Below are positions 22,437-25,788 of a stretch of DNA of 64,000 nucleotides, one piece after another (the stretch's first letter is position 1; each line of letters begins with the position of its first letter). The position numbers were made by a program, and so were the translations under genes. Under the pieces are notes generated by a model. That model had not been told where the DNA came from. It worked only from the letters and a program-made list of their open reading frames with translations, and made no database searches. Origin of the DNA: a virus (lineage: Duplodnaviria; Caudoviricetes); IMG/VR virus record IMGVR_UViG_2869891414_000007, positions 1 to 64,000 of that record; one strand, written 5' to 3'.

Positions 22437-22830
22437 CCCGGAACGGCTGAAAATGTTTGTTGATGGCGGGCGCATTGTCTCAACGTTAGCCCCGTCGCTC
22501 TCTTTTGAAAATCAATATACGCTGACGCTGTTTATTGAGGATTTTCCCAGTGATGTTGATTACCTCTTTGTGCCGATTCTGGCATGGCTGCGCGAGCATC
22601 AACCGGACATCATGGCAACAGAAGAGAAGCGCCGCACCGGCTTTATTCATAAGGTCGATGTGATTAGCGATGTGCTGAGTGATATCCGTATCGACCTGCA
22701 ACTGACTGAGCGGGCCATTGTGAAAGAGGTTGACGGTGCATTGCATGTTAACCACGCGCTGGAACCGGCGTGGCCGGGTACGCCAACACGACCAACAGCC
22801 ATCTACTTTAACGGCGAAGTGATCCCATGA
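22375..22830 (+). CDS. R: Tail completion protein gpR
   Basis: MLKPKLLR...SLSFENQYTL...WLREHQPD. Confidence 0.92.
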   Translation: MLKPKLLRQALTDSLQLFQTNPERLKMFVDGGRIVSTLAPSLSFENQYTLTLFIEDFPSDVDYLFVPILAWLREHQPDIMATEEKRRTGFIHKVDVISDVLSDIRIDLQLTERAIVKEVDGALHVNHALEPAWPGTPTRPTAIYFNGEVIP

Positions 22831-23276
22831 ATGAGCTGAAGCCCTTTGATGATGCATTGGCCGGGCTGATTGCCAGTCTCACGCCCAAGGCGCGCAAAGC
22901 GCTGGCGGTGACGGTTGCAAAGCGCCTGCGGGCCAGTCAGCAACAACGCATCAAACGCCAGCAAGCGCCCGACGGCACCCCGTATGCCGCGCGTAAATCT
23001 CAACCGCTGCGTAAACCCAAGGGTCGGATTAAGCGGGAAATGTTCGCCAAGTTGCGCACCGCGCGCTATATGAAAGCCAACAGTAGCTCTGATGAGGCGG
23101 TGGTTGAGTTTGCCGGGCGCGTGGAACGAATGGCGGCAGTGCATCATTTTGGCCTGCGTGACCGCCCAAACGTATACAGCAAAGATGTGCAGTATGATGA
23201 AAGGCCGTTGTTGGGGTTTGATAAGAAACTAATTGATAGTATAGAAAAAATTATTACATCCTCTTTTACAAAGTAA
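22827..23276 (+). CDS. S: Tail completion protein gpS
   Basis: QQRIKRQQAPDGTPYAARK; HHFGL; RPLLGF. Confidence 0.92.
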   Translation: MNELKPFDDALAGLIASLTPKARKALAVTVAKRLRASQQQRIKRQQAPDGTPYAARKSQPLRKPKGRIKREMFAKLRTARYMKANSSSDEAVVEFAGRVERMAAVHHFGLRDRPNVYSKDVQYDERPLLGFDKKLIDSIEKIITSSFTK

Positions 23277-23313
23277 TATTGTGACTTTTATTGTTCGCTA
23301 CCAGCGAATTTAG

Positions 23314-23342
23314 TTGACCATTTGCGAACTTTGCTCTATTCT
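23314..23342 (+). promoter_or_regulatory. Sigma70-like promoter of the retron locus
   Basis: TTGACC-N17-TATTCT. Confidence 0.55.
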
Positions 23343-23348
23343 AAATTT

Positions 23349-23625
23349 AACGTTACTGAAGAGAGAATCCGCCGGTTAGACCTGAGTAGTGATATTTACT
23401 ACTTGTGGAGGATTTAGATCCTCTGTTTTTTTGCGCTGCCCTTGTGCTGTCCACGGTGCTGCTACGAAGCTTCCCATGGCATGTTGTAGTGTATAGGCGT
23501 ACTGCGTACTGATCGTGTTGGCGACATCACGATCAGATTGAATAGGGTTCACTGCCAAAAACTCTCATTTCCTGATTATGGCGACCTAACAGCAATTCTG
23601 CTGTTAGTTATCAGGAATAAAATTT
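23349..23625 (+). ncRNA. Candidate retron ncRNA (msr-msd) / structured leader
   Basis: Hairpins AGTAGT/ACTACT, GAGGAT/ATCCTC, CTGATCGTG/CACGATCAG and CTAACAGCA/TGCTGTTAG upstream of a retron-type RT operon; boundaries approximate. Confidence 0.6.
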
Positions 23626-23790
23626 ATGAAAAATAGTAACGCGTTTTGGCAGGCACTTAAGAAGAATGACACTAAAAAGAAGAAGCGGAAGCAAAAGCAG
23701 AAGCTTTGGAATATTGTAAAAGTACTGGTGAGAGCCGGTCTGTGTGTTTACAAACTCCTTAACTTCTTCTTTGGTGATAATGATGCTTAA
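23626..23790 (+). CDS. Unannotated 54-aa basic/amphipathic small protein, candidate retron toxin
   Basis: MKNSNAFWQALKKNDTKKKKRKQKQKLWNIVKVLVRAGLCVYKLLNFFFGDNDA; AGGA SD upstream. Confidence 0.65.
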   Translation: MKNSNAFWQALKKNDTKKKKRKQKQKLWNIVKVLVRAGLCVYKLLNFFFGDNDA

Positions 23791-23821
23791 GTGTGCCCTA
23801 CCTTCAGTAAAGAGGTGATTT

Positions 23822-24139
23822 ATGATTAACCGAGCATTAAAAACCATCAGGCTATTCCATAACATAAAACAATCTGAACTTGCGGATAAGCTATGTATTT
23901 CAAAATCATACTTATCAGAGCTTGAATCAGGAAAAAAAACAGTCTCATTTGATATATTAGAAAAATATTCTAATAATTTTGACATTCCAGTTTCATCACT
24001 GGTTTTTTTTGCTGAACGAATTAATGAACCGGGTAAAGATACAATTCCTGAAAAATTCAAAACTGTTTTTGCAGATAAAATACTTAAGATAATGGAATGG
24101 AGCATAGCGAGAGATGGCGAAAAAGAAAGGGAGAATTAA
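23822..24139 (+). CDS. XRE-family HTH protein, retron accessory
   Basis: IKQSELADKLCISKSYLSELESGKK HTH; overlaps the RT start. Confidence 0.85.
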   Translation: MINRALKTIRLFHNIKQSELADKLCISKSYLSELESGKKTVSFDILEKYSNNFDIPVSSLVFFAERINEPGKDTIPEKFKTVFADKILKIMEWSIARDGEKEREN

Positions 24140-25046
24140 TACTAAAGGCAAGTCTTATAGTATTAATGATAGCGCTTTATTCAATATTCAGAGTAAAAAC
24201 AAGCTTGCGGAAGTATTACTGACAAACTTAGATAACATAAAAAGCTTATTATCTAATGACAATTATATTGTTTTTGATAATACTAATGAAGATGGTAAAA
24301 AGCGGACTATTCAAACCCCATCAGATAAACTTAATGTTGTGCATACAAGAATAGCGAGTTTACTATGCCGTATAACTCAACCAGAATATGTCCATTCAGG
24401 AATAAAAAATAAATCTAATGTATCCAATGCCAGAAAACATGTAGGTACACACCCTGTATTAACGTCTGATATACGCTCATTTTTTCCTTCGACATCTAAG
24501 CGCCAAGTCTTCAATTTTTTTAATAGGAAATTGAAGTGCGCTGCTGATGTATCAGACCTCATGGCGGAATTGTGTACGTATGCGAACCATATACCTACAG
24601 GCAGTCGAATAAGTATGCCTTTAGCATTCTGGGCAAACTATGACATGTTTAATGAAATGAACATAATTTCAAATAAATTAAATATAACAATGACTGTTTA
24701 TGTTGATGATATTACTTTTTCTGGCAATGCTGTTAATAGACTGTTTCTTCATAAATGCAAGAGAATAGTGGAAAAGAATGGCCATGTTTTACATCCAAAG
24801 AAAACAGCCCTCTACTCTGCTAAAGAGCCTAAGACCATTACAGGTGTTATTGTTCATGAAAATGAAATTAAAGTAAGAAATTTACATTACAAGAAAATTT
24901 ATTTTGATTTAGATGCGTGGAAGAAAACTGACGACGCCATAGAAAAAGAAAACTTAAAAAACAAGGTTCTTGGTCGAATGCATTCTCTTTCTACTATTAA
25001 TGAAAAATTCAAAGATAAAGCACGAAGCTTTCGGTCCATTGATTAG
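24114..25046 (+). CDS. Retron-type reverse transcriptase
   Basis: NARKH (NAxxH), SDIRSFFPS, PTGSRIS, YVDD and ITG (VTG-like) motifs. Confidence 0.9.
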   Translation: MAKKKGRINTKGKSYSINDSALFNIQSKNKLAEVLLTNLDNIKSLLSNDNYIVFDNTNEDGKKRTIQTPSDKLNVVHTRIASLLCRITQPEYVHSGIKNKSNVSNARKHVGTHPVLTSDIRSFFPSTSKRQVFNFFNRKLKCAADVSDLMAELCTYANHIPTGSRISMPLAFWANYDMFNEMNIISNKLNITMTVYVDDITFSGNAVNRLFLHKCKRIVEKNGHVLHPKKTALYSAKEPKTITGVIVHENEIKVRNLHYKKIYFDLDAWKKTDDAIEKENLKNKVLGRMHSLSTINEKFKDKARSFRSID

Positions 25047-25082
25047 CTGCAAAACTTTTCATAACAAAAGTCTTGTTGATGT

Positions 25083-25100
25083 TGTGTAGTACCTGATACA
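25083..25100. promoter_or_regulatory. Ogr box at the V late promoter
   Basis: TGT-N12-ACA, 46 bp upstream of V. Confidence 0.7.
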
Positions 25101-25146
25101 ACCCCTCATTATTGAAGCAAGTAACTATTAGTTACATGCTTCCCTC

Positions 25147-25788
25147 ATGAATACTCAAACCCAAATCACTGAAATTCTGCGCCTGCTGCGCAACCTTATC
25201 CGTATTGGTACGGTGGCTGAGGTCGATCTCGACCAAGCCCTGTGCCGTGTGGCGACAGGGGACAATACCACCGGCTGGTTAAACTGGCTGACGCTTCGCG
25301 CCGGTCAATCACGTTCATGGTGGGCACCGTCTGAGGGCGAACAGGTATTGATATTGTCCCTCGGTGGCGAACTCGACACCGGCTTTGTGTTGCCGGGCAT
25401 TTTCTCTGATGACTTTCCGCCACCGTCGGCCTCGGCCAATGGCTTGTATATCGCTTTTCCTGACGGTGCCACGTTGCACTATGAGCCGGAAAGCGGCGAG
25501 TTGCTGGCAGATGGAATCAAAACAGCGGTTATCAATGCCAGTGAATCGGTGAATGTTACCGCCCCCAATATCACCTGTACCGCCTCGGTGAAAATCCTTT
25601 TAGACACGCCCGAAGTTGAATGCACTAACAACCTGACCACCGCCACCTTGAATGTGATCCAAGGCGGCAAGATGAGTGGTGATATTGAGCACTCAGGCGG
25701 CCAGTTCTCATCCAATGGCGTGGTAGTCGATAAGCATGACCATGGCGGTGTGTTGCGCGGCGGGGATTATACGGAGGGGATTAAATGA
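25147..25788 (+). CDS. V: Baseplate spike gpV
   Basis: NLIRIGTV, WWAPSEGEQV, C-terminal HDHGGV. Confidence 0.93.
   Translation: MNTQTQITEILRLLRNLIRIGTVAEVDLDQALCRVATGDNTTGWLNWLTLRAGQSRSWWAPSEGEQVLILSLGGELDTGFVLPGIFSDDFPPPSASANGLYIAFPDGATLHYEPESGELLADGIKTAVINASESVNVTAPNITCTASVKILLDTPEVECTNNLTTATLNVIQGGKMSGDIEHSGGQFSSNGVVVDKHDHGGVLRGGDYTEGIK

Follow-up and report, generated by a model that had tools for sequence, protein, structure and literature searches.

A type VI retron in a P2-like Yersinia prophage with a covarying hairpin that buries the Shine-Dalgarno sequence of a small protein gene

Genes of the locus and their prophage setting

The window, by which we mean the whole stretch of viral DNA that was analysed (64,000 nucleotides), contains three consecutive genes that are preceded by a structured leader, and all features described below lie on the plus (+) strand unless they are called antisense. 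The first gene (23626..23790) is translated into a small protein (SP) of 54 amino acids, a probable toxic effector. It is followed by a gene for an HTH protein of the Cro/C1 type with 105 amino acids (23822..24139), which is recognised by both Pfam HTH_3 (2e-12) and PADLOC HTH_VI (6e-36), and this in turn overlaps by 26 nt with the gene for a retron reverse transcriptase (RT) of 310 amino acids (24114..25046). The RT carries YVDD and matches PADLOC RT_VI at 3.4e-104 (346 bits), while the next best PADLOC retron RT model reaches 1e-40. With agreement in both the RT clade and the upstream, overlapping Cro/C1 HTH gene, the locus classifies as a type VI retron in the scheme of Mestre et al. 2020. 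Two antisense open reading frames, at 23611-24105 and 23376-23558, were rejected as spurious, as they match no family and overlap the HTH gene and the leader. Public RNA runs provided two single contigs on this stretch at a depth below 3, and two raw-read runs from the same species had no reads on it, which together is too little to judge expression. Among these contigs is one of 151 nt from a freshwater metatranscriptome, which agrees exactly with the SP coding sequence (23620-23770) at a depth of 2.6, too low for expression to be judged.

The host element is a P2-like Yersinia prophage, and the retron occupies its gpS/gpV cargo slot. The cassette is 99.8% identical to one in Yersinia phage vB_YenM_56.17, which is flanked there by gpS, a gene for tail completion, and gpV, a baseplate gene. 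The paper that describes these Yersinia phages makes no mention of a retron. Related Yersinia P2-like phages have the flanks in common, with a slot that is near-empty in vB_YenM_201.16 and that holds other hypothetical genes in phages 06.16-2 and 31.17. The interval from gpS to gpV, at 22827-25788 of the window, is a variable cargo site of these phages. With the flanks included, identity to phage 56.17 over 3.7 kb averages 95.8%, against 99.8% for the cassette, and because of this difference the cassette looks to have been shared more recently than the neighbouring DNA. A homologous SP-HTH-RT locus, with an RT that is 53% identical, was found in the same slot (Phage_tail_S/Phage_base_V) of a P2-like prophage of Serratia fonticola (L053 2025-3448), while the Hafnia and Morganella relatives adjoin integrase or other genes instead.

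A search of genome contigs with the window RT returned a single identical locus, in Yersinia aldovae. The nearest distinct relatives of this RT are ~53% identical and come from Serratia, Hafnia, Morganella and metagenomic sequences, followed by Vibrio RTs at 48-49% identity. No near-identical DNA turned up in the complete genomes of E. coli that were searched. In two metagenomic contigs (L050 and L051, 2981-4158) the SP and HTH genes are intact and the RT region is made up of two open reading frames of 167 and 202 amino acids, so that the RT may be broken or frameshifted there while the SP-HTH pair has been kept.

The SP open reading frame had been called cryptic in a preliminary description of this DNA; it is, however, already annotated as a hypothetical protein in GenBank OM046627. 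The same description gave the peptide as Lys-rich and then amphipathic, and the 54-residue translation, in which a Lys/Arg-rich half precedes one that is hydrophobic/amphipathic, bears this out. The peptide matches no Pfam, PHROG or PADLOC family, and a word-index homologue search with it recovered near-identical proteins only. Using a full phmmer search we identified relatives that are 40-54% identical, and all of those with fetched DNA reside in SP-HTH-RT loci. They form a family of 48-55 amino acid proteins at the same position in the locus, and every usable homologous locus has an open reading frame of this length with a good Shine-Dalgarno (SD) sequence, ending 27-47 nt before an HTH gene that always comes directly after it. 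Pairwise dN/dS values within three subgroups range from 0.10 to 0.68 and are mostly ~0.2, and judged by these sequences the SP gene is a real gene under purifying selection.

Members of the SP family, including the SP of Retron-Vpa2, are all built of a polar N-terminus, then a basic linker, a hydrophobic helix led by Trp and an acidic tail. AlphaFold2 (AF2), supplied with a 22-sequence alignment, modelled the SP as a single helix over residues 5-49 with a mean pLDDT of 73, rising to 81-91 across residues 31-50. The protein is therefore predicted to be helical, with confidence in its hydrophobic C-terminal half.

A conserved hairpin at the start of the SP gene

The start of the SP gene lies within a riboregulator hairpin of four helices (23552..23652), which was defined from its fold, complementarity, two covariance models (R1 and R2) and pair counts. 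It had been described as one long hairpin that locks the SD sequence, the AUG and the first codons of the gene, and a check of the sequence located every one of the pairings listed for it. The outer stem (P1) joins CTGCCAAAA (23552-60) to TTTTGGCAG (23644-52) over 9 bp, the AUG helix (P1b) is formed of 4 bp with TCAT (23565-68) opposite ATGA (23626-29), which includes the start codon, and the anti-SD/SD stem (P2) joins TTCCTGAT (23569-76) to ATCAGGAA (23610-17) over 8 bp. Above these the apical arms, CTAACAGCA (23586-94) and TGCTGTTAG (23599-607), face each other, and in the fold the apical stem (P3) takes up 23586-93/23600-07. Complementarity is 100% in P1, in P2 and between the apical arms. 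The SD sequence of the SP gene, AGGA (23613..23616), is positioned 9 nt upstream of the AUG and, by both sequence and fold, is wholly contained in P2.

Folding of the 116 nt from 23545 to 23660 gave an MFE of -31.9 kcal/mol, compared with -20.4 +/- 3.3 kcal/mol for shuffled sequences (z -3.5), and the stability of this fold was matched by none of 200 dinucleotide-preserving shuffles. This structure exceeds chance. An Rfam scan of 22500-25500 gave a sub-threshold snoRNA match only, and no curated family covers the leader RNA.

Single-sequence folds of 25 homologues displayed a common plan in all, consisting of an outer stem with its 3' strand at about SP codons 7-9, an anti-SD/SD stem, a GGCGA internal loop and a variable apical stem. 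Covariance model R1, which was seeded on five close sequences with the structure of the preliminary description, gave matches in 24 loci, with the element located where the SP gene starts. R2, built from the R1 matches, then identified exactly one element, once more at the start of the SP gene, in each of 27 distinct homologous loci; these make up our comparative set of 27 distinct elements, with RTs down to ~30% identity, and in the 64-kb window the covariance models likewise count one element. Five of the R2 matches lie beyond its training set (L058, L059, L035, L031 and L018), and one of these is Retron-Vpa2 (L058), which was matched at its SP start (1912-2045) with an E-value of 8.8e-7. 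When MAFFT and RNAalifold were applied to the hairpin region the anti-SD/SD stem was missed on account of indels, and this was resolved by the covariance models.

In the alignment of the 27 loci, which was fitted to the model structure and so inflates the paired fraction, 94.6% of cells pair, compared with 66.8% when partners were shuffled and 34-49% when partners were slid by one to three columns. Because of the slid controls and the single-sequence folds we judge this signal to be real despite the fitted alignment. Covariation in homologous loci, by which the preliminary description proposed to check its hairpin, is present, with changes on both sides in 26 of the 29 pairs, and the open reading frame and the stem are both kept across the homologous loci. 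P1, P2 and P3 are each 95-97% paired and all of their pairs covary; for the SD strand in P2 this amounts to pairing in 96.4% of cells and covariation in 8/8 pairs. The outer, anti-SD/SD and apical stems are therefore well supported. The start-codon pairing is the weakest part of the hairpin: P1b is 86% paired and almost invariant, so covariation speaks neither for nor against it, and at 23565-66 it competes for two bases with a long-range helix that covaries (23361-65/23562-66).

These data also bear on whether a chance hairpin has been paired with a spurious open reading frame in AT-rich cargo DNA. The region is indeed AT-rich, short open reading frames and hairpins are common, and the peptide lacks a Pfam, PHROG or PADLOC match, but with a z-score of -3.5, covariation across 27 loci, conserved position and length of the open reading frame, dN/dS below 1 and phmmer relatives of 40-54% identity in SP-HTH-RT loci, this explanation is effectively refuted.

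The 3' strand of P1 (23644-23652) is at the same time coding sequence, namely SP codons 7-9 (F-W-Q). Other subfamilies have NEQQ or RDQQ in place of this conserved N-terminal FWQ motif, and the peptide motif changes together with the leader strand; since the two vary jointly, the peptide motif and the RNA stem constrain each other. We also observed the octamer ATTTATGA at both 23622-23629 and 23818-23825, spanning the start codons of the SP and HTH genes, although this may be chance.

Predicted architecture of the whole leader RNA

The hairpin forms part of a larger predicted RNA structure that runs from upstream of the SP gene to just before the HTH gene. A promoter-like site, TTGACC-17 nt-TATTCT (23314..23342), was found upstream of it in a consensus scan only, with 9/12 matches. 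The structured region is bounded by a terminal inverted repeat, with a 5' arm TTACTGAAG at 23353..23361 and a 3' arm CTTCAGTAA at 23802..23810, just upstream of the HTH SD sequence; the arms are 9/9 complementary and pair in the MFE fold of 23345-23825, in which three arms are closed by this 9-bp terminal repeat (z -4.25). Exact terminal repeats occur at equivalent places in a few homologues only, and an RNAduplex scan for them did not discriminate.

Within these boundaries, two short conserved hairpins that are msr-like (23384..23424, comprising 23384-23404 and 23407-23424) were predicted by folding, and both have double-sided changes in a 10-sequence consensus fold. They are followed by a long hairpin (23432..23493) that varies in length and sequence among homologues and, by analogy with Vpa2, is the probable body of the msd template, and then by an 11-bp hairpin (23509..23536) that was located by its inverted repeat and a direct repeat, carries the first copy of TGGCGAC in its loop and has a stem that covaries. 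Downstream of the riboregulator hairpin, the remaining SP coding sequence folds as the third arm (23653..23794), which is closed by GCACUUAAG (23653-61) and CUUAAGUGU (23786-94). The SP stop codon is located within this closing stem, which is nearly invariant among close relatives.

A further, long-range helix covaries between a GAGAG box (23361..23365) and a CUCUC box (23562..23566), the latter beginning one base past the 5' strand of P1 and the former lying ~200 nt upstream. Across 24 loci the boxes occur in four combinations, GAGAG/CUCUC, GGGAG/CUCCC, GAGAU/AUCUC and GGGAU/AUCCY, and forcing the helix in the window sequence costs 2.7 kcal/mol. As the helix crosses P1 and the CUCUC box shares two bases with the AUG-masking P1b, it would either make a pseudoknot in the hybrid RNA core or represent an alternative state that is exclusive of the P1/AUG pairing. 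The leader might then be more than a simple hairpin switch, with a 'priming' fold, akin to a1/a2, and a 'toxin-off' fold that compete in cis, although we regard this as rather unlikely. If such alternative states did exist, a mechanical link within one molecule would join the initiation of reverse transcription to the exposure of the toxin start site, on top of whatever msDNA does in trans.

Relation to Retron-Vpa2 and Retron-Sen3 and control of the SP

The preliminary description had cautioned that its design may not be wholly new, and rightly so, as the same design has been published for Retron-Vpa2 (Zhang et al., doi 10.1101/2025.10.22.683967). In the Vpa2 hybrid RNA (hyRNA) of ~470 nt, msr-msd is fused with the reading frame for a toxic SP, whose RBS and AUG lie in stem-loops. 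In experiments from the same study, the Vpa2 SP alone was toxic and its translation was repressed, and translation needed an active RT and full-length msDNA, which could even be supplied in trans. Such msDNA expressed from an engineered Retron-Eco1 induced the SP, for which the repeat-bearing 5' stem-loop was needed. Furthermore, the RT, HTH and hyRNA co-purified, and the toxicity of an HTH mutant depended on active RT (doi 10.1101/2025.10.22.683967). Zhang et al. (doi 10.1101/2025.10.22.683967) also report that Retron-Eco12, a type VI retron of E. coli and hence, like the one described here, enterobacterial, defends against lambda-vir without detectable basal msDNA. Both this study, from 2025, and the Sen3 study considered below are preprints.

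Among our homologous loci, the one with V. parahaemolyticus RT P0101 (L058) has a small open reading frame that is exactly the Vpa2 SP of Table S3 in the Sen3 preprint, and it carries K15, I39, F43 and F45, the residues mutated by Zhang et al. On account of this exact match and of these residues, L058 can be taken to be Retron-Vpa2 or an identical allele. When compared with it, the window locus has the same SP-HTH-RT operon, in which a structured leader precedes the SP gene, an SD sequence inside a stem, and a short repeat in the msd loop and in the riboregulator loop, ~60 nt apart. The three-arm fold predicted for 23345-23825 also has the shape reported for the Vpa2 hyRNA, and its perfect terminal repeat may correspond to the terminal inverted repeats that close the latter. 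Likewise, both SPs are ~55 amino acids long, begin with a basic half, continue with a hydrophobic helix and end in an acidic G/D tail, and the covariance model made from relatives of the window detects the Vpa2 element (E 9e-7). The two nevertheless differ in sequence, with identities to the window proteins of 48% for the RT, ~41% for the HTH and ~20% for the SP. The outer stem of Vpa2 uses RDQQ codons whereas that of the window uses FWQ codons (UUUUGGCAG), the repeat core is GACGA in Vpa2 and GGCGA in the window, and the window copy is cargo of a P2-like prophage, inserted between gpS and gpV. From this comparison it is close to certain that the window hairpin is a homologue of the Vpa2 riboregulator arm.

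The hairpin-gated toxin design, in which a toxin mRNA with a buried RBS is fused with the RT template in one RNA, is thus already described for this family, and the window locus extends it. For retron biology this is confirmation and extension, not discovery. What is added is the presence of the Vpa2-type design in the cargo of temperate P2-like phages, both in Yersinia and in Serratia, and a set of 27 elements whose covariation independently backs the riboregulator and its paired repeat boxes. Two features stand out, namely the outer stem built from SP codons 7-9 and the crossing GAGAG/CUCUC helix.

The repeat boxes are formed in the window by a direct repeat of TGGCGAC, with one copy at 23519-25 in the loop of the 11-bp hairpin of the predicted msd and a second at 23579..23585 in the internal loop of the riboregulator, between P2 and P3. 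Of the 24 loci compared, 22 have a G[G/A]CGA pair, Vpa2 included, at a spacing of 56-68 nt (mostly 57-61), and the upstream copy always lies in a hairpin loop, on a stem whose sequence differs from locus to locus. In three lineages (L049, L039 and L058) the GACGA variant appears in both copies, while L009 is an exception. For Vpa2, 7-nt repeats have been proposed as the site at which msDNA docks on the riboregulator, a step that is a hypothesis even for that retron (Zhang et al., doi 10.1101/2025.10.22.683967), and the repeat pair observed here fits the idea. RNAduplex calculations of pairing between msDNA and riboregulator produced whole-length duplexes without discrimination. The core of the box, however, is 5-7 nt and largely invariant, and it could equally be a protein-binding motif.

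This raises an alternative in which the hairpin and the G[G/A]CGA boxes bind the RT and/or HTH, and remodelling of that complex frees translation with no pairing of msDNA. It would agree with the co-purification of RT, HTH and hyRNA in Vpa2, with box sequences that are kept and do not drift, as expected of a recognition motif, and with an apical loop, AAUUC(C/U), whose sequence is likewise conserved in many homologous loci. It does not sit well with the induction of the Vpa2 SP by trans msDNA from the engineered Retron-Eco1 and its need for the repeat-bearing 5' stem-loop, and the G-to-A change in both copies in three lineages fits pairing and co-evolving protein recognition equally. We consider such a protein-gated arrangement to be improbable.

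Our preferred reading is that translation of the toxin at the window locus is derepressed in an msDNA-dependent manner, which we think is likely. The hairpin structure, its covariation, the repeat pair, the coding status of the SP gene and the homology with Vpa2 are observed here, and onto these we place, by homology only, the ideas that there is one transcript, that msDNA is made from it, that the SP is toxic, that its translation is silenced and that docking occurs. One transcript of ~460 nt (roughly 23353-23810) would serve both as RT template, with msr-msd at ~23370-23540, and as mRNA for the toxic SP of 54 amino acids. At rest, the SP SD sequence would be locked with the upstream anti-SD in the 8-bp stem, and the 9-bp outer stem would tie codons 7-9 to the leader, so that little or no toxin is made. 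On phage infection msDNA would accumulate, the triggers in relatives being phage recombination proteins or inhibition of RecBCD. The 5' hairpin loop of the msDNA, bearing the complement of TGGCGAC, could then dock on the internal-loop TGGCGAC next to the anti-SD, upon which the hairpin would open, the SP would be translated and the infected cell would stop growing. A toxin that is kept silent until reverse transcription or msDNA opens the stem had been suggested in the preliminary description, and this proposal is for the most part supported through Vpa2 homology and covariation, with nothing found to contradict it; its AUG pairing is weakly supported.

Such an arrangement has a parallel in the type I toxin mRNAs of hok/Sok, which encode a small helical toxin and hide the RBS by a long-range fold-back within their own mRNA. 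Activation of hok/Sok occurs by 3' processing and its control is by antisense RNA, whereas the proposed trigger here would be ssDNA that is reverse-transcribed from the same transcript.

A buried SD sequence does not in itself prove silence, because in Retron-Sen3 the RBS is sequestered and yet the SP is detected without phage. Sen3, a cl2075 retron, has its RBS buried in a basal stem, yet its ssDNA and SP are constitutive (doi 10.64898/2026.04.27.721009), with SP-FLAG detected in the absence of phage and the HTH acting as a post-translational antitoxin (Garcia-Rodriguez et al., doi 10.64898/2026.04.27.721009). The main rival to msDNA-dependent derepression is therefore post-translational control of this kind, in which the hairpin would only damp or tune translation, a low constitutive level of SP would be neutralised by the HTH after translation, and the system would fire upon an imbalance between HTH and SP, for example during RecBCD inhibition. 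In Sen3, neither ncRNA nor RT is needed for the HTH to suppress the toxicity of the SP, and infection leaves ssDNA levels unchanged, and the window HTH is a clear type VI HTH whose gene always lies directly after that of the SP, all of which would suit such control. However, the window SP does not resemble the 79-amino acid cl2075 SPs that Sen3 and its Yersinia relative encode and aligns instead with the Vpa2-type family, the riboregulator and the repeat pair both have their homologues in Vpa2, and toxicity in the Vpa2 HTH mutant required an active RT. Sen3-like control of the window locus is on this evidence unlikely, if less so than the protein-gated arrangement.

Sen3 and the window locus have in common a type VI SP-HTH-RT organisation, an SP encoded in a conserved structured RNA, an RBS in a stem and an inverted repeat flanking the SP. 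They differ in that the cl2075 SPs, that of Sen3 among them, have 79 amino acids, with a polar, net-acidic N-terminal extension (MKYETLRN...) and an amphipathic C-terminal helix ending in DWMK, and in that ssDNA and SP of Sen3 are constitutive and control by the HTH is post-translational. The window SP, with 54 amino acids and a basic character, has no similarity to the Sen3, Yersinia and Xenorhabdus SPs of Table S3. As the window SP aligns with the Vpa2 SP family and is unlike the cl2075 SPs, we assign the locus to the Vpa2-type lineage and not to that of Sen3.

The cl2075 retron of Y. enterocolitica (Toro laboratory) was considered as the identity of the locus and ruled out by the cl2075 SP sequences, and 401 sampled genomes of Y. 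aldovae's order yielded seven RT matches and no clear cl2075 locus. Two genomes of this order have more distant type VI-like loci (L065 and L066), with an RT 33% and an HTH 47% identical to those of the window. Their small open reading frame, of ~67 amino acids from an internal Met, has an N-terminus (MKNNTSHNLWYSLIK) that resembles that of the window SP (MKNSNAFWQALKK) together with a long amphipathic C-terminal helix, and may represent an intermediate type of SP.
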